This document shows positions 1,845 to 49,215 of a DNA stretch of 64,000 nt, one piece after another. A program made the position numbers and the translations under genes. This DNA comes from a phage: sequence record NC_101838.1; one strand, 5' to 3'. Under the pieces are notes generated by a model that was given only the letters and a program-made list of their open reading frames with translations, was not told where the DNA came from and did no database searches. Each line of letters opens with the position of its first letter. Position 1 is the stretch's first letter.

Positions 1845-2609
1845 TTGAAATTTATCTACAAAGAACACTACCACAAAGGTGTTGTGTGGAGTCTATTTGA
1901 CGGGTCTGGTGGTGCAGTCATTGACTGGGCAAAAGCTGGGTACCTGTGCCTGTGCTTTAATGCAGAAGGTGCTGATCACGGCAGTTATGCAGAGGTTATA
2001 ACCGATCATCCCAACATTCACTATGTGGATTATTGGATTGACCCATGGTTCCCTCAGGAAACTTTTTGCATGTACCCAGCTCCAGACTTTATTCTTGCAT
2101 TTCCTCCGTGCACGCATTTAGCGGTATCAGGTGCTGCACATTTTAAGAAAAAGCTGGCTAAGGACCCCATGATCCAAATTAATGCTGTAAAGGATGCTCG
2201 GGTTGCGGAAGAGCTGGGAGAGATTTACGATTGCCCGTGGCATGTAGAGAATCCTGTGGGTGTTATGTCCACACTGTGGCGTAAACCTGATTACCGTTTT
2301 CATCCTTCTGACTATGGTGGGTATTTACCGGAGGATGATGTAAACCCTTGGTTTCCTGAATTTATAGCTCCACGTGATGCCTATCCAAAAATAACTTGCG
2401 GCTGGATAGGTAATGGATTTATAATCCCGCCCACAAAACCTGTCCCGCAAATAGTTGACGCGGTTAGCGGGTATTCCATGCAACACGCCAAGCTGGGTGG
2501 GAAGAGTGCAAGAACGAAGATGATCCGAAGCCTCACACCACGTGGCTGGGCAAAAGCTGTATTCTTAGCAAACGAGCCTGTAGTAAGGAGCAGAATTAAT
2601 GGGAAGTAA
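1845..2609 (+). CDS. DNA cytosine-C5 methyltransferase-like protein (short form)
   Basis: Motifs LFDGSGG (motif I-like), FPPC (PC motif), ENPVG (ENV-like); no ATG, probable TTG start after AGGAG RBS. Confidence 0.45.
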   Translation: MKFIYKEHYHKGVVWSLFDGSGGAVIDWAKAGYLCLCFNAEGADHGSYAEVITDHPNIHYVDYWIDPWFPQETFCMYPAPDFILAFPPCTHLAVSGAAHFKKKLAKDPMIQINAVKDARVAEELGEIYDCPWHVENPVGVMSTLWRKPDYRFHPSDYGGYLPEDDVNPWFPEFIAPRDAYPKITCGWIGNGFIIPPTKPVPQIVDAVSGYSMQHAKLGGKSARTKMIRSLTPRGWAKAVFLANEPVVRSRINGK

Positions 2610-4677
2610 ATTTATGGCATCTGCATACAACCGTTTCGGTGAGCCAAACCCGAAAGCAACTAAGTATAAAAGCGGGGGAAGTGTGAAACGAGACTATCGT
2701 GATGAAAAAGAAGTTGAAACTGTAGAGACTGTTTTAGAAAATACTAAAATTGTCCCTGTCCCACAACAAAATATCGGTCTGATGGCTGCACAATATTTTG
2801 GTGTGCGATCAGCATTGTCCCAAGAAGACGGTGTGACAGTCACTGCAACATATTTCCCATATTACGACCGCTACGGAAATCTGTCCGGTTTCAAAAAGCG
2901 CGACTGGACGATTCCTAAAGAGCAAAGGGGCCATTTCTCCGTTGTTGGCATAGTAAAGGCTAACTCTCAGATGTTTGGTCAAAAGCTGTGTGCATCTTCC
3001 AACAACCGTAAGCAGATTAACGTTTGTGAGGGAGAAGGTGATGTTATTGCAGCATGGCAGGCTGCATATCAGATACAAGTAAAAGGGATTCTCACCAACG
3101 CTAAAGCCCCGGCAAAGGTGAAGCAGTGGGCTAAAGAGGTCCAGGACGGGATCGACGCAGTTATCAACGGTGGTGATCTGGCAGGAAAACCCTGCCTGCC
3201 TTTTGTTGGAATTAACTGTGGATGTGCAAACGCAGTAGATACTTTTGCAAACAATGAGAAGTTTATCCGCAGCTATGGAACAGTTGTGCTGGCAATGGAT
3301 AACGATGCAGCTAACGAGGTAGAGAAGCAAAAACACGTCATTAAAGGTGTTGAGGCCACGCACAATATCGCAGCATTTTTGATGGCTGATAACGTTTACC
3401 ACGTAGAATACCCTGGTGAAGTAAATGACCCTGACGGGGTAAAAGATATCCGTGACATGCTGAAGGCTAAAAAGCTGGAAGATATTGTCAACATGTTCCG
3501 GCACCCTGTTAAATATGTGCCTGATGCTGTGTCGGATTTAGAAGACTTCTCTATCGAGTCTTTGCGGAAAAAGACTTCCAACGGGGTAGATATCAGCGCA
3601 GAGTTCCCAAAACTGCAAAAAATGCTAAAAGGCTTGCACAAAGGGACACTCGTAATGCTTACAGGGCCATCAGGGGGCGGTAAAACAACTGTAGCTAAAA
3701 AACTGGAACATTGTATTGCAAGATACCTAATGGACCCGACATGCCCGAAGGCTGATGACTATGAAGAGGATGATCGTCTATGTATGATCCATCTTGAGGA
3801 GGACCCAGAGGAAGCAATTAACTCCTTGTATGCAAACCAGTTAGGGTTTGATGTTAAAGAGTTTGTTGAAGATCCTAGCCAGTTTTTAACTGATCAAGAA
3901 CACGCAGAGATTCACCAATCATGGGCAAAAGCTGGAAAAATCAAAGTGTTCAAACATTTCGGATCTATTCCGGTGGACGAGTTGATTACCAAGCTTAAGC
4001 AAATGGTTTGCCTGTACCATTGCCGTTATATTGTGCTGGATCACCTGTCCATGGTAATTTCAGGGCTTAATGTTAAGGATGAGCGAAAAGAACTGGACAT
4101 GGCTATGACTCAGCTGGCTGCGTTTTGTAAGCAGTTTAACGTGTTTATCTTGGTGATCGCTCACCTCAAACGTACAGAGATTGTGCCTCCTAAGGACAAG
4201 GATGGTAACCCGTTACCTTTCTGGTATCCTGTGCGAAAAGAGAATTTGCGAGGATCGGCGGGGCTTGAACAGTTGAGTTGGGTAGTCATAGGTGTCGAGG
4301 CCGAAGAAATGGTGGATCGTTCTCGTGGACGTGTCCGTCTGGTAGGTCTTAAAAACCGTCCAGCAAAAACTCTAGGTATTGCTGACACTTTGGTTATGGA
4401 CCCGCACACAGGTAAGTTCCATGATGCCAGTAATTGGTACTGGGACAAAGAAATGCAAATGTTTACAGACGGAGAAGGTGGGGAGGTTGTTTGGAGACCT
4501 CAGGCTATGTTTGAGGATCAGGAGCATGCAGTTGTAGAAACACCTATGGGCAAGGTTGTGGCTGATAAGGTTGTAACTCCTACTGTTAAGCCTGTTGACA
4601 CGCAGGAAGACCTCCAGTACGATGATCCATCCTCTGACCCGGTCCCTGGTTTTGAGGATGATGAAACGCCTTTTTAA
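2599..4677 (+). CDS. DNA primase/helicase fusion (toprim primase + DnaB-like helicase)
   Basis: Toprim motifs CEGEGD and MDNDAAN; Walker A GPSGGGKTT; Walker B IVLDHL; acidic C-terminal tail EDDETPF. Confidence 0.85.
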   Translation: MGSKFMASAYNRFGEPNPKATKYKSGGSVKRDYRDEKEVETVETVLENTKIVPVPQQNIGLMAAQYFGVRSALSQEDGVTVTATYFPYYDRYGNLSGFKKRDWTIPKEQRGHFSVVGIVKANSQMFGQKLCASSNNRKQINVCEGEGDVIAAWQAAYQIQVKGILTNAKAPAKVKQWAKEVQDGIDAVINGGDLAGKPCLPFVGINCGCANAVDTFANNEKFIRSYGTVVLAMDNDAANEVEKQKHVIKGVEATHNIAAFLMADNVYHVEYPGEVNDPDGVKDIRDMLKAKKLEDIVNMFRHPVKYVPDAVSDLEDFSIESLRKKTSNGVDISAEFPKLQKMLKGLHKGTLVMLTGPSGGGKTTVAKKLEHCIARYLMDPTCPKADDYEEDDRLCMIHLEEDPEEAINSLYANQLGFDVKEFVEDPSQFLTDQEHAEIHQSWAKAGKIKVFKHFGSIPVDELITKLKQMVCLYHCRYIVLDHLSMVISGLNVKDERKELDMAMTQLAAFCKQFNVFILVIAHLKRTEIVPPKDKDGNPLPFWYPVRKENLRGSAGLEQLSWVVIGVEAEEMVDRSRGRVRLVGLKNRPAKTLGIADTLVMDPHTGKFHDASNWYWDKEMQMFTDGEGGEVVWRPQAMFEDQEHAVVETPMGKVVADKVVTPTVKPVDTQEDLQYDDPSSDPVPGFEDDETPF

Positions 4678-45231: not shown

Positions 45232-46164
45232 TCATTTACCACAAATCTTCTTGTATACCTCTTCTACCGTGTCAAACACTTCAGGCCTGTAGTAGAAAAA
45301 CTCAGTGCTACCGTCAAATTTTACAGGAAAGTTTATTTTATACTTGCTCAAGGCCTTATGCACAGATTTTTCTAAATCTACCATGTTTTGAGTTGATCCG
45401 CTCCATGTTTTTACTACGTGAAGAGTGTGGACACCTGCGCCAGATTTACGAGCACTGTTAAGCACCTCATTTTTCCTCCTGTGCATTTTAACGCATACAC
45501 CGATTTTCATAAGTGTTGGCACTTCTAAGTCATCAACCATAATGTAGAGTTTACCGTACTCATGAGATAAGAATCCATTTTGTGCGCATTTACAGCAGCC
45601 ACGACCACTTTTTAGGTTATTAGGTTTAGCAGACCACTTATACCCACAAATTTTGCACCTACATTGCACTTTTGTGTTATCATTGGCAATTTTCTCTAAT
45701 ATTTCTATGTCTGGGTTGGCTTTGTGGATAATTGCAGCGTGCTCCTTATGGGTTAACGCTTGACTTTGCCCACGTCTTAAGTCATAGCACTCTGGGCAGC
45801 CGTTTCTTTGGTATAAGTGGTTTTCAGGGTATTGTTCAAACACACCGTGTTCAGGGCAAACAATTTTTACAGGCGTTCTCATGTTCGCATATTTGACTAA
45901 TGAGTAATCGTACTTGTCCCCATGAACAGCCATAGCCTCTTTTATGAACTCTTCAGTGTTCTTTTTCGCTGACCCACCACACCTTGGACAACCATGATTC
46001 TTGAAAGCATGTGCCACAGGGGTTTGCCAGAACTCACCGTGCTCAGGACAAATTATACACACAGGTGTCTTGTTGTTTTTATACTCCACTTTGAAGTAAT
46101 CATATTTGTCACCATGTATAGTCTGAGCTTTTTCTATAAACTCTTCGGTTGTTAGTCTTCTCAT
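45232..46164 (-). CDS. free-standing homing-endonuclease-like protein (duplicated zinc-binding module plus T5orf172-like domain)
   Basis: Two repeats of HGDKYDY...CPEHG...GCP(R/E)C; C-terminal KIGVC...GSTEFF resembles T5orf172-type domain; own promoter. Confidence 0.55.
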   Translation of the reverse strand: MRRLTTEEFIEKAQTIHGDKYDYFKVEYKNNKTPVCIICPEHGEFWQTPVAHAFKNHGCPRCGGSAKKNTEEFIKEAMAVHGDKYDYSLVKYANMRTPVKIVCPEHGVFEQYPENHLYQRNGCPECYDLRRGQSQALTHKEHAAIIHKANPDIEILEKIANDNTKVQCRCKICGYKWSAKPNNLKSGRGCCKCAQNGFLSHEYGKLYIMVDDLEVPTLMKIGVCVKMHRRKNEVLNSARKSGAGVHTLHVVKTWSGSTQNMVDLEKSVHKALSKYKINFPVKFDGSTEFFYYRPEVFDTVEEVYKKICGK

Positions 46165-46279: not shown

Positions 46280-47557
46280 TTATTTACTCAACGGACAACA
46301 GTCTACATTCCCAACATGTTTAACACGTTCGATAACCTCTGCTTGTTTACCTGTGTTATACGGCCTACTGTTCGGGCTGGAGAGATAGCCAGACACTCTT
46401 CGGATCACTGAGATATATTGTTCATCGTGGCATCCGCACGCAGGGCAGCAGAACCCTTTAGCTGTTGCACTGAACTCACCAGAGAAACCACACTTGAGAC
46501 ATTTATCCACAGGTTGGTTAATACCAAAATACATAATGTGTTTATACCCGAAGTCAACAAGAGCCTCTAAAGCATCAAGGTTGTTTTTCAGGTTAGGTGT
46601 CTCTACGTATCCGATGTTGCCACCGGAGGAGATCATAGCAAAACCTTCCTCATACTCCCACTTATCAAAAGGAGAGCTATTGATCCATACTGGCTGATGG
46701 AAACTGTTGGTGAGATATTCATGCTCGTGCTTTAACACTTCTGGATATTCACGATCCAGACAGGTTGCAGCTTTATAGCATAGACTCTCAGAAGGAGTGC
46801 CGTACAAGCTAAATGCTAGTCTACTTTCCTTCTTGTATCGCTCACAAGCATCTCTCATGTGCTGAAGGATTCCAAGAGCTAAAGCCTTGTCACCTTCTCT
46901 GCCCAAAATCTGACAGGTTTCATACACACCAATGTACCCAATGCTGATGGAAGCGTACCCGTCATAGAAGAGTTTATCAATACTTTCTTCAGGATCCAGG
47001 CGAGCAAGAGCGCCTTCACACCACATGATGGGGTTCTGCCCTGCCTTTGTTCCTTTTAGACGGTTAACCCTTACAAGGTGAGCCTCGTATGCAAGATCCA
47101 AGTATTCGTCAAGAACTGCAAAGAAATCAACACCTTCCGTCTTAGCTTTTGCCGCAATCATTGGCAGGTTAAGGCTAACAACGCCTAAGTTAAATCTGCC
47201 AAGGTATTTCTCCTCGCCTGTTTCCAAGTCATTGTATTTGCTAAGAAAACTCCGGCAACCCATGCTCGTTACTTTGCCATCTGTCGAGCCTGTCACTTTT
47301 CTATTTAGTGGTACAGATACGAAGTCAGGATAGATACGTTCTGCACAGCATTCCAGAGCTAATCGTTTCAAATCATAGTTAGGATCTCCAGGGTTCATGT
47401 TGACACCCTCTTCTAGGAAGAACAGCACTTTAGGGAACACAGGTGTGATCCGTTCTTCACCAAGACCCATTTTGTGGACTTTCAAGTAATTTTTGGTAAT
47501 CATTCTACCAAAGACCGAGGTATCCAGTCCTAAACTTAATGTGATGAATGGAGTCTG
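46280..47557 (-). CDS. nrdD: anaerobic ribonucleoside-triphosphate reductase NrdD, exon 2
   Basis: Begins QTPFITLS, continuing exon 1; CCPACGCH zinc site; glycyl-radical motif RRVSGY near C-terminus. Confidence 0.8.
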   Translation of the reverse strand, partial: QTPFITLSLGLDTSVFGRMITKNYLKVHKMGLGEERITPVFPKVLFFLEEGVNMNPGDPNYDLKRLALECCAERIYPDFVSVPLNRKVTGSTDGKVTSMGCRSFLSKYNDLETGEEKYLGRFNLGVVSLNLPMIAAKAKTEGVDFFAVLDEYLDLAYEAHLVRVNRLKGTKAGQNPIMWCEGALARLDPEESIDKLFYDGYASISIGYIGVYETCQILGREGDKALALGILQHMRDACERYKKESRLAFSLYGTPSESLCYKAATCLDREYPEVLKHEHEYLTNSFHQPVWINSSPFDKWEYEEGFAMISSGGNIGYVETPNLKNNLDALEALVDFGYKHIMYFGINQPVDKCLKCGFSGEFSATAKGFCCPACGCHDEQYISVIRRVSGYLSSPNSRPYNTGKQAEVIERVKHVGNVDCCPLSK

Positions 47558-48354
47558 CTGTCTCCTCCCTGTGTTTCCACAGGGCCAGACTATCTCTTAC
47601 TCTACTTCAATAAGATAATAACCCTTTATTGTGAGATGCTTACCTTCGGCATTTCCTTCGATAGCCCTATGAACGTTACCTACGTTCAAATTTAAGGCTT
47701 TTGCACAGGCATAGAGTGAAGGATATTCACCCACCAAGGTTTTCCCTTTGTATGCCTGCACTTTCCTATAGCACTTACCTGGACAAAGTCCTGTTCGGAA
47801 AGCATGTCTCTTATTATCTTCCGGCAAAACCCACTCTAGGTTAGACGGATGATCATTCAATGTATTGCCATCTTTATGATTCACTTCCCAGTTTTCAGGG
47901 TCTTCTGGGACATCCGGCAAACAATACAAGGCAACAATCCTTGAGGTTTGGATTCGAATCTTTTTACCTTTGTGGTTGAAAGAGTACATATAACGGCGTT
48001 TAACATGCTTGTTACCTTTTCCATAACCTCCCCACAATATTGGGTGTAGCATTCCACGTTTCCCGTATACGTTTCCAACCTCATCAATCACATAGTTTGA
48101 TTCTTCACCATTAAGAATGATCTTTTTCATAGAGCCTCTCCATTTCGAAGTTAGTATTTCAACTAACCCCTACACTACTTGGTTCAGAAATGTTTGTCAA
48201 GCATCTCTGCCTTTCGTTAGTCGTTACAACCGTTCCAACTCCTGTAAGAACTAGTCACGGGATTGGCATAGCTTTCGCCTTAGCGTTCCCCGTTAGCCGG
48301 ATTTACCGACCCCTCTTATGAGGTTAGGAGAGTTTTACAACGGCCAGTTTGTTA
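47558..48354 (-). mobile_element. group I intron interrupting nrdD
   Basis: In-frame stop right after exon 1; conserved NrdD sequence resumes at 47557; core-like elements ACGGGGAAC and CAATCCCGTG; exon 1 ends in U, intron ends in G. Confidence 0.7.
47597..48130 (-). CDS. HNH homing endonuclease (intron-encoded)
   Basis: EVNHKDGNTLNDHPSNLEWV HNH motif; GGAGAGG RBS inside intron. Confidence 0.8.
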   Translation of the reverse strand: MKKIILNGEESNYVIDEVGNVYGKRGMLHPILWGGYGKGNKHVKRRYMYSFNHKGKKIRIQTSRIVALYCLPDVPEDPENWEVNHKDGNTLNDHPSNLEWVLPEDNKRHAFRTGLCPGKCYRKVQAYKGKTLVGEYPSLYACAKALNLNVGNVHRAIEGNAEGKHLTIKGYYLIEVE

Positions 48355-49215
48355 ACCGTTGACAGAAGTTAACGTATTGATTTGATAGAGCAAAGTCTGC
48401 ATGCTGTCAAATACGTCTTTATCTGTCATTTGCATTGCAACAGTCTCAGCATCTGGCAACCAATGTTCCTGGCAAAATTTAAGGTTCTTCTCATAGGTCG
48501 CTTCAGCATACTGTGCCAGATAATGATCAATATGGCTCATAGTCTGACCCCCATATTGAGCACTAGCTACTGCACTAGAGATTTGGCTAAGGATTGTTGT
48601 TGCAACCCCTATTGACTTAGGCTTACTGACATGGGCGTTACCAATGTTGAATCCGTTTTCCAACATATCTGGATAATTTACCAAACAACAGTTTGTTAAC
48701 GGACTGATCAAGTAGTCAAGATCATGCACATGGATGAAGCCTCTATTGTGCTCTTCTGAGACACGGTCTGGCAGGATCTGTGTTGATGCAAGGTGTTTGC
48801 TAAGAATGCCTGCAAGCAGGTCACGATGAGTGTGTACATGATTGGTAGGCTTATTTGCGTTTTCTTTTGTAAATTCATCACAAGTGCGATCCAAGAAGCC
48901 ACTAATATCTGCAAGCAGTTTTCCACCTGCCTCTCTGTTATTATCTCTTGTCTGCCTATACTGGATGTATTCTCTGGCTGCACATTTTAAACCCATATCC
49001 ATAAGAGCGTCTTCAACAAGGATATGGATATTTTTTACAGAGATCGTGCACTGGTCGGTTGGTAGATTGTTAGCAACAACTTCATTAACCGCGCAGGCGA
49101 TCCGGTAAGCTTCTTCTTCAGTATGTCCAGACTCAAGTAAGGCGGACTCTGCCGCCTTGATCACCTTAATTCCGTTATAGACCTCTTCTCTACCGTCCCG
49201 TTTTACAACTTTCAC
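48355..49215 (-). CDS. nrdD: anaerobic ribonucleoside-triphosphate reductase NrdD, exon 1
   Basis: ATP-cone start MKVVKRDGREE; NrdD blocks GFIHVHDLDY, TNCCLV, MLENGFNIGNA, PKSIGVAT, QYGG. Confidence 0.85.

Follow-up and report, generated by a model that had tools for sequence, protein, structure and literature searches.

The nrdD locus of this phage raises the question whether it represents two gene fragments with an endonuclease gene between them or a single gene interrupted by an intron. The window analysed here, a 64-kb stretch of DNA (64,000 nt, sequence record NC_101838.1), derives from a Vequintavirus (rV5-like coliphage). On its minus strand nrdD, encoding the anaerobic ribonucleotide reductase, is very probably one gene which is split by a 797-nt group I intron with an HNH open reading frame (ORF). 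The locus consists of four parts.

48355..49215, minus strand: nrdD exon 1 with a GTG start at 49215 and 287 codons; ATP-cone and N-terminal part of NrdD, ending with ...NTLTSVNG.
47558..48354, minus strand: predicted group I intron of 797 nt; it opens with a UAA in the reading frame of exon 1 and closes with a G.
47597..48130, minus strand: HNH ORF of 177 aa, a putative I-HmuI-like homing endonuclease located in loop L8 of the intron.
46280..47557, minus strand: nrdD exon 2, from QTPFITLSLG... to the glycyl-radical C-terminus.

The initial annotation placed the stop of the NrdD frame right after ...NTLTSVNG, and indeed the last codon of exon 1 (GGT, 48357..48355) is directly followed by an in-frame TAA (48354..48352). 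According to Pfam, residues 1-91 of exon 1 correspond to the ATP-cone and residues 118-287 to positions 1-154 of the NRDD profile; the alignment to T4 NrdD reaches up to the end region of exon 1. The proposed resumption with QTPFITLS... at 47557 is found in the translation and agrees with the profile, as exon 2 covers NRDD positions 156-562 followed by Gly_radical and is 45% identical to T4 NrdD exon 2. Since the profile runs from 1 to 154 in the first piece and from 156 to 562 in the second, no part of NrdD is missing between them. nrdB is located in the window as well, and the annotation of related phage records places nrdA upstream of nrdB.

The ORF within the insert, taken for an HNH endonuclease from its sequence, exceeds the Pfam cut-off for HNH_3 (29.3 versus 24.8 bits, E = 6.8e-7) and matches the HNH endonuclease family PHROG 59 with E = 1.5e-26. 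A C-terminal match to an I-HmuI NUMOD-like domain remains weak, with 18.4 bits where the cut-off is 27. Among solved structures I-HmuI (1U3E) comes out best, again as a weak match (E = 2.7e-4) in which residues 8-160 are aligned, the HNH-motif stretch NHKDGN...SNLEWV being opposite to DHKDGN...TNLRWV. At NCBI an identical protein goes by the name 'H-N-H homing endonuclease'; 138 contigs carry the intact ORF. It starts 224 nt into the insert and carries a ribosome binding site of its own, as had been supposed: a GGAG motif is located 7 nt upstream of the ATG. A sigma-70-like promoter for the ORF was not found within the intron.

To define the junction, related genomes were compared. In ~76 related Vequintavirus records including rV5 (NC_011041), the joined exons form one uninterrupted sequence with up to 99.5% identity, whereby this count of records results from 90 records covering the joined exons in one place minus 14 with an ORF-less intron. 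The NTL.S.NGQTPF block, expected to be contiguous in other phages, is uninterrupted in these intron-less records. The one nrdD site occurs in three allelic states, namely with the HNH intron (27 records), with the ORF-less intron (14 records) and empty (~76 records). Among the 27 isolates, which come from several countries, the intron is 97-99.9% identical. In IMG/VR scans almost no Vequintavirus junction alleles were found. If the locus of Escherichia phage WalterGehring is spliced at the homologous bases, the GenBank protein QXV85697.1 is obtained exactly. Together with the intron-less alleles this proves the proposed splice sites to be exact, and the comparison supports that excision would restore the nrdD frame. 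Exon 1 ends in U (T 48355) and the intron in G (47558), both as previously claimed.

The exons differ with the presence of the intron. At exon position -1, the codon is GGT in five of five intron-containing alleles and the synonymous GGG in seven of seven sampled intron-less alleles, where the 12 fetched alleles stem from lineages that are not independent. HNH-type alleles moreover show CAG in place of CAA at positions +1 to +3 of exon 2, which completes a 3-bp P10. The intron-less nrdD sequence (e.g. rV5, JeffSchatz), a putative target of the endonuclease, contains TCTGTCAACGGGCAAACTCCATTC.

The window was searched with the Rfam models. At the gathering threshold (50 bits for RF00028), which is a detection criterion and no biological definition, there was no match in the whole window. 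The best RF00028 match in the window has 27.7 bits (E = 9.5e-5 for a 1.3-kb stretch, 0.0047 window-wide) and lies at the intron locus, the sole group I match within the 64 kb. A covariance-model search, suggested as a check by the initial annotation, therefore finds the expected model at the expected place but falls short of the gathering threshold. The low score is likely caused by the 534-nt ORF in L8 and two hairpins between P3 and P4, all of which count as insertions. The ORF-less variant scores 29.3 bits versus 50 for gathering (E = 1.4e-5). The top match puts the model's 5' half inside the ORF, away from the true 5' core, and a second match (48217..48293) represents model positions 60-149. 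The J8/7-P7'-P9 part is aligned with high posterior probability in the window and in the ORF-less variant; herein AAGAGAUAGUC is placed on the consensus AAGAUAUAGUC of RF00028. Since the permissive Rfam search misplaced the 5' half, the 5' core was rebuilt by hand and by comparison, resulting in the following elements, all on the minus strand.

48338..48361, minus strand: P1, formed by the exon end CAACGGU (48361..48355) and the internal guide GCCGUUG (48344..48338), 7/7 pairs.
48327..48332, minus strand: P3 5' strand CUCUCC, 6/6 pairs with GGAGAG (48141..48136).
48296..48323, minus strand: hairpins P3.1 (CCUC/GAGG) and P3.2 (GUCGG/CCGGC) between P3 and J3/4.
48229..48293, minus strand: P4-P6 domain with P4 ACGGGG/UCCCGU, P5/P5a with a GAAA tetraloop cap, and P6/P6a.
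48218..48222, minus strand: P7 5' strand GACUA, preceded by J6/7 UGUAAC, 5/5 pairs with UAGUC (47592..47588).
48147..48209, minus strand: P7.1 (CAGAGAUG/CAUUUCUG) and P7.2 (GGGGUUAGU/ACUAACUUC), 8/8 and 9/9 pairs.
48136..48141, minus strand: P3 3' strand GGAGAG, which doubles as the Shine-Dalgarno motif of the HNH ORF.
48120..48134, minus strand: predicted P8 5' strands CUCUAU and AAGAU, pairing with GUAGAG (47605..47600) and AUCUU (47616..47612).
47588..47616, minus strand: predicted P8 3' strands within the ORF end, J8/7 UAAGAGA and P7 3' strand UAGUC.
47558..47584, minus strand: P9 hairpin CCCUGUG-GAAA-CACAGGG, 3' tail AGGAGACA and omega G (47558).

The secondary structure of the ORF-deleted intron was evaluated without constraints. 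The minimum free energy is -108.4 kcal/mol (z = -5.0; 0/100 shuffles fold as well), and the fold recovers P1, P3, P3.1, P3.2, P4-P6, P7.1, P7.2, P8 and P9, the pseudoknotted P7 being the exception. All drawn core helices are made of standard pairs. Hence a P1-P9 fold is achievable with the proposed splice sites. In P1, U 48355 and G 48344 form the U·G pair of the 5' splice site, and CUG at 48347..48345 can form a putative P10 with the first exon 2 bases CAG (3/3 standard pairs). Both sequences that had been pointed out as resembling group I core elements, ACGGGGAAC and CAATCCCGTG, occur in the insert and make up helix P4, one strand each. This P4/P4' motif recurs on at least 120 contigs in IMG/VR. 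An alignment of 18 sequences shows no variation in P7 and J8/7.

P3 was examined for covariation. Among 17 related introns 97.1% of the cells are paired versus 54% in shuffles, with 0/500 shuffles as high; 41 cells are changed on both sides, and slid controls reach at most 64%. A permutation test of cognate versus non-cognate strands gave 0/5000. Pairs were counted in a gap-free alignment of segments set by position. A whole-intron MAFFT alignment of 18 relatives was dropped for this purpose, as the P3 5' strand was misaligned in UUUUCC-type sequences. A P3 5' strand adjoining J3/4, as in T4 td and as suggested by aligning the ORF-less variant to the Rfam model, was rejected due to poor pairing in the window. 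The true strand is located upstream of the two hairpins, which is borne out by the covariation in the family. P3.1 and P3.2 are names of convenience coined here, and a literature search on them gave nothing useful; the layout of two hairpins after P3 recurs in SPO1 as well as many introns from IMG/VR.

P8 is presumed as a long-range pairing across 510 nt by analogy with SPO1 alone, and covariation gives it no backing. The A and the U of the HNH start codon (AUG at 48130) belong to its strand CUCUAU. J8/7 in turn opens with the stop codon of the ORF (47599..47597).

Taken together, the helix set, the unconstrained fold and the covariation of P3 bear out the reading of the nrdD insert as a group I intron with an HNH ORF. 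Judged by its sequence, it is an intron of the T4/SPO1 type (IA2-like) with P1 and P3 to P9 along with P7.1/P7.2. Extra helices at this place, between P7 and P3', are typical of subgroup IA (IA2-like phage introns), the definition of which reportedly goes back to Michel and Westhof in 1990. The T4 nrdD and SPO1 introns likewise have helices at the place of P7.1/P7.2.

The layout is closest to the intron in the DNA polymerase gene (gene 31) of the Bacillus phage SPO1, which encodes I-HmuI, and not to the T4 nrdD intron. As read directly from the SPO1 sequence, its P3 (CCCAGU/GCUGGG) is followed by a 3-nt linker and two hairpins before J3/4 UAA, and P7.1/P7.2 are located between P7 and P3'. Moreover its ORF is in L8, closed by a long-range P8 (11 bp in SPO1) with the 3' strand in the ORF end, and the stop abuts J8/7 (AAGAUAUAGUC). 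I-HmuI (174 aa) and the HNH ORF (177 aa) are aligned end to end, though at low similarity (E = 2.7e-4). I-HmuI is a nicking enzyme that cuts intron-containing DNA, too. The two introns differ in host gene (DNA polymerase versus nrdD), phage group (Herelleviridae versus Vequintavirinae) and host (Bacillus versus E. coli), and P3.2 is much longer in SPO1.

The T4 nrdD (sunY) intron shares the host gene and the conserved stretch ...EVNTLFSSNGQTPF... with the window. It also lacks P2 and has UAAAA between P1 and P3, P7.1/P7.2, the core strings AACGACUA and GAAGAUAUAGUCUG and a P9 hairpin; core strings are common with the SPO1 intron as well. In contrast, the T4 site is 32 nt upstream and splits a Tyr codon (AYEY|EVNTL), whereas the Vequintavirus intron is inserted between NG and QTPF. 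In T4 the intron has a length of 1033 nt, its ORF begins at intron position 236 past P9, and hairpins between P3 and J3/4 are missing. Its ORF, I-TevII, is of the GIY-YIG family according to the T4 record and not HNH. Identity with the T4 nrdD intron was therefore rejected on account of the distance of 32 nt and the other endonuclease family.

Within the genus, an ORF-less intron of 257 nt (e.g. Shigella phage CM1, MK962749) occupies the identical insertion site in other Vequintaviruses. It shows 86.7% identity over the first 139 nt, a similar J8/7-P7'-P9 end and the same helices with compensatory changes in P1, P3, P3.1, P3.2 and P6. In P1 an A-U pair is changed to C-G (AAACGGU/GCCGUUU versus CAACGGU/GCCGUUG in the window), and both additional hairpins are kept despite sequence changes (CCUCA/UGAGG and GUCAGC/GCUGGC). 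The 3' end reads ...GACCG in place of ...GACAG (47558). Apart from the missing ORF, flanking exon bases differ and the sequence of the whole part between P7.1 and P8 shows no relationship. Hence the two intron variants are mosaics and not related by a simple ORF deletion.

In Escherichia phage WalterGehring (BASEL, MZ501111) the intron is 99.9% identical over 797 nt. Its nrdD CDS is deposited as a two-piece join with the same exact junction, and the inner ORF as 'putative homing endonuclease'. However, no RNA class or structure is given there, and NrdD starts at Met72 such that the ATP-cone is cut off. Intron boundaries in the BASEL phages were set by comparative genomics (10.1101/2021.03.08.434280).

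Three other readings were weighed against a functional group I intron. First, the intron could have decayed so that it is spliced inefficiently and nrdD is a pseudogene, which would be tolerable given the aerobic nrdAB. Most relatives lack the insert, nrdB is encoded in the window with nrdA annotated upstream of it in related records, and transcript or splicing data for any Vequintavirus nrdD intron were not found in the literature searched. But both exons are open and conserved, the core helices are all intact with standard pairs, the intron is nearly invariant in 27 isolates with an ORF intact on 138 contigs, and all sampled alleles with the intron have the U at exon position -1 that splicing requires. 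We consider decay very unlikely.

Second, a free-standing HNH gene might have been inserted into nrdD, the halves being translated separately and assembling without any splicing. This has a precedent in the nrdA of Aeromonas phage Aeh1, split by mobE, whose separately translated halves are described to assemble in work that is cited in PMC3653736. Most GenBank records also list nrdD as two CDSs on either side of an HNH gene, and Rfam shows no group I intron at the gathering threshold. Against this, a start codon is lacking where exon 2 begins; an in-frame ATG first appears 18 codons downstream (47503), within the conserved QTPFITLSLG... block. Moreover the 257-nt variant has the same ribozyme core at the same site without any ORF, and in the window the sequences on both sides of the ORF make up an entire group I core, for which covariation is seen. 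A split gene without splicing is hence even less probable than decay. An intein or a group II intron, finally, is next to impossible and already refuted by the sequence itself, for although phage ribonucleotide reductase genes often harbour inteins and other intervening sequences (PMC3653736), the in-frame TAA at the insert start and the ORF's own start preclude translation as part of NrdD, the Pfam search gave no Hint/intein or reverse-transcriptase domain, and no group II model matched even at permissive E-values.

For the preferred reading, an active group I intron, we infer the following course of splicing and homing. nrdD would be transcribed into a single pre-mRNA, and ribosomes on exon 1 would halt at the UAA made of the first three intron bases. 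The intron would fold P1 to P9, with P7.1/P7.2 and the two additional hairpins past P3. A free guanosine in P7 would attack 3' of the U (48355) of the P1 U·G pair, and the released exon 1 end would then attack after the terminal G (47558) such that ...AACGGU is joined to CAGACU.... The ligated product would encode a NrdD of 712 residues with ...NTLTSVNG-QTPFITLS... at the junction.

L8 would encode the 177-aa I-HmuI-like HNH endonuclease. As the ribosome binding site is a strand of P3, the start codon overlaps P8 (2/3 bases paired) and the stop is located in J8/7, the ORF may be translatable only from RNA with an unfolded ribozyme core. In a mixed infection the endonuclease would cut or nick the intron-less nrdD of related phages near the insertion site, and repair from the intron-containing genome would copy the intron together with adjacent exon bases (homing). 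The observations related to homing are the presence/absence polymorphism at one site and the intron-linked exon changes. Additionally, the 3' tail of the intron can pair with positions +5 to +8 of exon 2, whereby both sides co-change between the two intron variants (GGAG/CUCC versus GGGG/CCCC). It is conceivable, yet rather doubtful, that the overlap of helices and translation signals along with the tail pairing is a real switch coupling endonuclease translation, splicing and 3' splice-site choice, and not a by-product of compaction.

Phage ribonucleotide reductase genes with group I introns that encode homing endonucleases have been textbook knowledge since T4. The nrdD intron is not new, since MZ501111 already joins the exons at the exact junction, and it is an ordinary phage mobile intron; as an element of a classical kind it brings a small biological gain. 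For annotation it means that nrdD is one gene and not two fragments with a stray HNH gene, as which most deposited relatives show it. Moreover, genuine phage introns of the SPO1 type with an ORF in L8 escape the Rfam group I model at the gathering threshold, and at least 120 viral contigs have the same core. The same conserved part of nrdD gains two further independent intron sites, the second and the third. Within the genus, the clean polymorphism with three states (empty, ORF-less and ORF-containing) is suited to homing experiments. If the switch were true, the genus would represent a natural system for the whole homing cycle, with all three states, >100 sequenced isolates and, among these, several laboratory-ready BASEL phages.

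The window derives from an rV5-like coliphage of the genus Vequintavirus, and its 2.9-kb nrdD region matches 120 phage records at 93-98% identity, almost all of them from this genus. All genes treated here (the nrdD pieces and the intron ORF) lie on the minus strand:

49215..48355, minus: nrdD exon 1 from GTG 49215; ATP-cone and Pfam NRDD profile positions 1-154
48130..47597, minus: 177-codon ORF within the 797 nt separating the nrdD pieces
47557..46280, minus: nrdD exon 2, frame QTPFITLSLG... from 47557; NRDD positions 156-562 and glycyl-radical domain
45232..46164, minus: 310-aa ORF just downstream of nrdD; T5orf172 and repeated DUF723/CapR-type zinc-finger motifs; PHROG 681 'endonuclease'

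The initial annotation had the NrdD frame stopping after NTLTSVNG at 48355 and resuming with QTPFITLS at 47557, which agrees with the split of the NRDD profile. The last codon, GGT (48357..48355), is directly followed by TAA (48354..48352). Judged by the profile, the two pieces together make up a complete NrdD with no stretch absent between them. The Pfam ATP-cone covers residues 1-91 counted from GTG 49215. In the BASEL annotation NrdD begins at Met72, whereby the stretch 49002..49215 (minus) and with it most of this domain are lost. The frame opened by the GTG shares its first 4 nt with the end of the glutaredoxin gene, which points to the long form as the real one.

A query joining the 200 exon nt on either side of the insert matched 118 records of the phage collection, 90 with coverage in a single place. 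About 76 records, including rV5 (NC_011041), are uninterrupted across the junction with identities up to 99.5%, while 14 of the 90 hold a 257-nt insert. The 797-nt insert occurs in 27 records (97-99.9% identity), among them BASEL phage WalterGehring, whose nrdD is annotated as a two-piece join. When that locus is spliced at the corresponding bases and read from the annotated ATG, it yields QXV85697.1 / YP_011997805.1 residue for residue; the predicted exon junction is thus exact. GenBank and RefSeq records already contain these boundaries, and the BASEL paper used comparative genomics to set intron boundaries beside homing endonucleases (10.1101/2021.03.08.434280). The rV5 genome paper describes introns in the terminase gene only (PMC3606486), which fits with rV5 nrdD being intron-less. 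Our literature search turned up neither a published structure nor a splicing experiment for the Vequintavirus nrdD intron. The same three intron states are seen in 19 records named 'Campylobacter phage' (MG0656xx), whose nrdD shares 96-97% identity with that of E. coli Vequintaviruses; probably the hosts were wrongly labelled or the isolates were contaminated.

A covariance-model search, proposed with the initial annotation, returned a group I match that missed the gathering score (RF00028, 27.7 of 50 bits; E = 9.5e-5 for a 1.3-kb stretch, 0.0047 window-wide), the sole such match in 64 kb. Its 3' part aligns well (AAGAGAUAGUCUGG, then the hairpin CCCUGUG-GAAA-CACAGGG), the model's 5' part being pushed into the ORF. 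The ORF-less 257-nt variant (Shigella phage CM1) scores 29.3 bits. To rebuild the structure, we compared the insert with the T4 nrdD intron, the Bacillus phage SPO1 DNA-polymerase intron and at least 120 viral contigs (IMG/VR) carrying the P4/P4' motif UAACGGGGAA...CAAUCCCGUG.

Predicted elements of the nrdD intron (all minus strand; P3.1 and P3.2 are our names for two hairpins between P3 and J3/4)
P1: 48361..48355 / 48344..48338; CAACGGU / GCCGUUG, U·G at splice site
P10: 48347..48345 / 47557..47555; CUG / CAG
P3: 48332..48327 / 48141..48136; CUCUCC / GGAGAG
P3.1, P3.2: within 48323..48296; CCUC/GAGG and GUCGG/CCGGC
J3/4: between P3.2 and P4; UAA
P4: 48293..48288 / 48262..48257; ACGGGG / UCCCGU
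P5/P5a: within 48284..48266; GAAA tetraloop cap
P6/P6a: within 48255..48229
J6/7: before P7; UGUAAC
P7: 48222..48218 / 47592..47588; GACUA / UAGUC
P7.1: 48209..48202 / 48192..48185; CAGAGAUG / CAUUUCUG, 8 bp
P7.2: 48170..48162 / 48155..48147; GGGGUUAGU / ACUAACUUC, 9 bp
P8, first part: 48134..48129 / 47605..47600; CUCUAU / GUAGAG
P8, second part: 48124..48120 / 47616..47612; AAGAU / AUCUU
J8/7: 47599..47593; UAAGAGA
P9: 47584..47567; CCCUGUG-GAAA-CACAGGG
Omega G: 47558; terminal G

Helices P1-P9 could be drawn with the splice sites proposed initially, using standard pairs throughout, and the expected U at the exon 1 end (last base of GGT, 48355) and G at the intron end (47558) are present. An unconstrained fold with the ORF interior removed recovered every tabulated helix except the pseudoknotted P7; the ORF-deleted intron folds at -108.4 kcal/mol (z = -5.0), matched by 0 of 100 shuffles. 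On this comparative evidence the insert is a group I intron.

P3 is odd in that its 5' strand precedes two hairpins instead of adjoining J3/4. Hence we tested it for covariation in 17 related introns, with both segments defined by position only (the hexamer ahead of the 3-nt linker preceding the first hairpin, and the hexamer behind the conserved GAARY motif following P7.2). Standard pairs fill 97.1% of cells versus 54% in shuffles (0 of 500 as high), 41 cells are altered on both sides, and the covariation score is 1.13 versus 0.26. Slid controls reach 64% at most, and the test of cognate versus non-cognate segments gave 0 of 5000. The two Vequintavirus variants also differ by compensatory changes in P1 (C-G vs A-U) and P3 (C-G vs G-C), an extra A-U pair in P3.1, and GUCGG/CCGGC vs GUCAGC/GCUGGC in P3.2; in P6 the sequence differs with pairing kept.

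Exon bases are linked to the intron as well. The last exon 1 codon is GGT (Gly) in 5/5 intron-containing alleles read and synonymous GGG in 7/7 sampled intron-less Vequintavirus alleles, a small sample of mutually related alleles. U at -1 is a requirement of the P1 U·G pair, and HNH-type alleles, those with the 797-nt form, begin exon 2 with CAG, not CAA, resulting in a 3-bp P10. Co-conversion during homing would explain this, as would selection for splicing. A pairing is also possible between the intron 3' tail and exon 2 bases +5..+8, with the 3' splice site then lying in the loop (window 47550..47565, minus; GGAG/CUCC in the HNH type, GGGG/CCCC in the ORF-less type, 2608..2626 of its locus). 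This is no canonical group I helix, both exon variants occur in intron-less alleles, and with only two independent states the pairing may be chance.

The gap ORF, enclosed by P8, carries an HNH_3 domain and its own ribosome-binding site (GGAG 7 nt before ATG). The factual statements of the initial annotation were all correct. Its best solved-structure relative is I-HmuI (1U3E; residues 8 to 160 of 177, E = 2.7e-4), with NHKDGN...SNLEWV aligned to DHKDGN...TNLRWV; it matches PHROG 59 (HNH endonuclease) at 1.5e-26, and the identical protein is found on 138 contigs as 'H-N-H homing endonuclease' (NCBI). No sigma-70-like promoter was found within the intron. As the Shine-Dalgarno motif is the P3 3' strand, the start codon overlaps the P8 5' strand and J8/7 begins with the stop codon, translating the ORF and folding the ribozyme should be mutually exclusive.

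A decayed, non-splicing intron is disfavoured, since the core and both exons are intact and 27 isolates conserve the insert. A split gene giving two polypeptides is unlikely, given that the first start codon of exon 2 lies 18 codons in and the ORF-free variant keeps the ribozyme. An intein is excluded by the in-frame TAA, and no Hint domain was found in the insert. The initial interpretation holds: the element is a phage group I intron of the classical kind that carries a homing-endonuclease gene.

Two further elements belong to this region. Some Vequintaviruses (Escherichia phage JEP1 and, judging from size, phita32 and 'Campylobacter phage C2') hold a second 797-nt group I intron in nrdD, which the window lacks (JEP1 locus 3459..4255; between codons SMG and CRSFL of exon 2, homologous to window ~47258/47257). 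It is T4 td/sunY-like with another HNH ORF in P6. The 310-aa ORF is probably a free-standing homing endonuclease, positioned like mobC of T4 between nrdD and nrdG; the gene there varies among Vequintaviruses (310, 331 or 270 aa; a short hypothetical protein in rV5).

By RNA architecture and protein, the SPO1 intron is the closest known relative. Its sequence reads in the same layout: P3 (CCCAGU/GCUGGG), a GAA linker and two hairpins ahead of UAA-P4, P7.1/P7.2, and I-HmuI in L8 closed by a long-range 11-bp P8, the stop codon abutting AAGAUAUAGUC. Bacillus phage S4-2 has a related group I intron (~2440..2590 of its locus) that splits a DNA polymerase III alpha-like gene. Its P4-P5 shares 90% identity over 42 nt and the same two hairpins follow P3, but the ORF begins in P6, not P8.

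The T4 nrdD (sunY) intron shares the host gene, a UAAAA-P3 start without P2 and core strings. However, its site lies 32 nt upstream, within the Tyr codon of AYEY|EVNTL, it lacks hairpins after P3, and it encodes the GIY-YIG enzyme I-TevII after P9. We therefore reject identity with it; the intron of the window is a separate invasion of the same conserved nrdD stretch. The ORF-less Vequintavirus variant resembles the HNH type in the first 139 nt (86.7%) and at the 3' end, but is unrelated from P7.1 to P8, which makes the two variants mosaics. Among the matches listed for the motif-bearing contigs, most show P3, two hairpins and then P4, with two 5' types (GUGAAC... and UUUUCC...). Both members checked against Rfam score well under the RF00028 threshold, and introns of this type may therefore be under-annotated.
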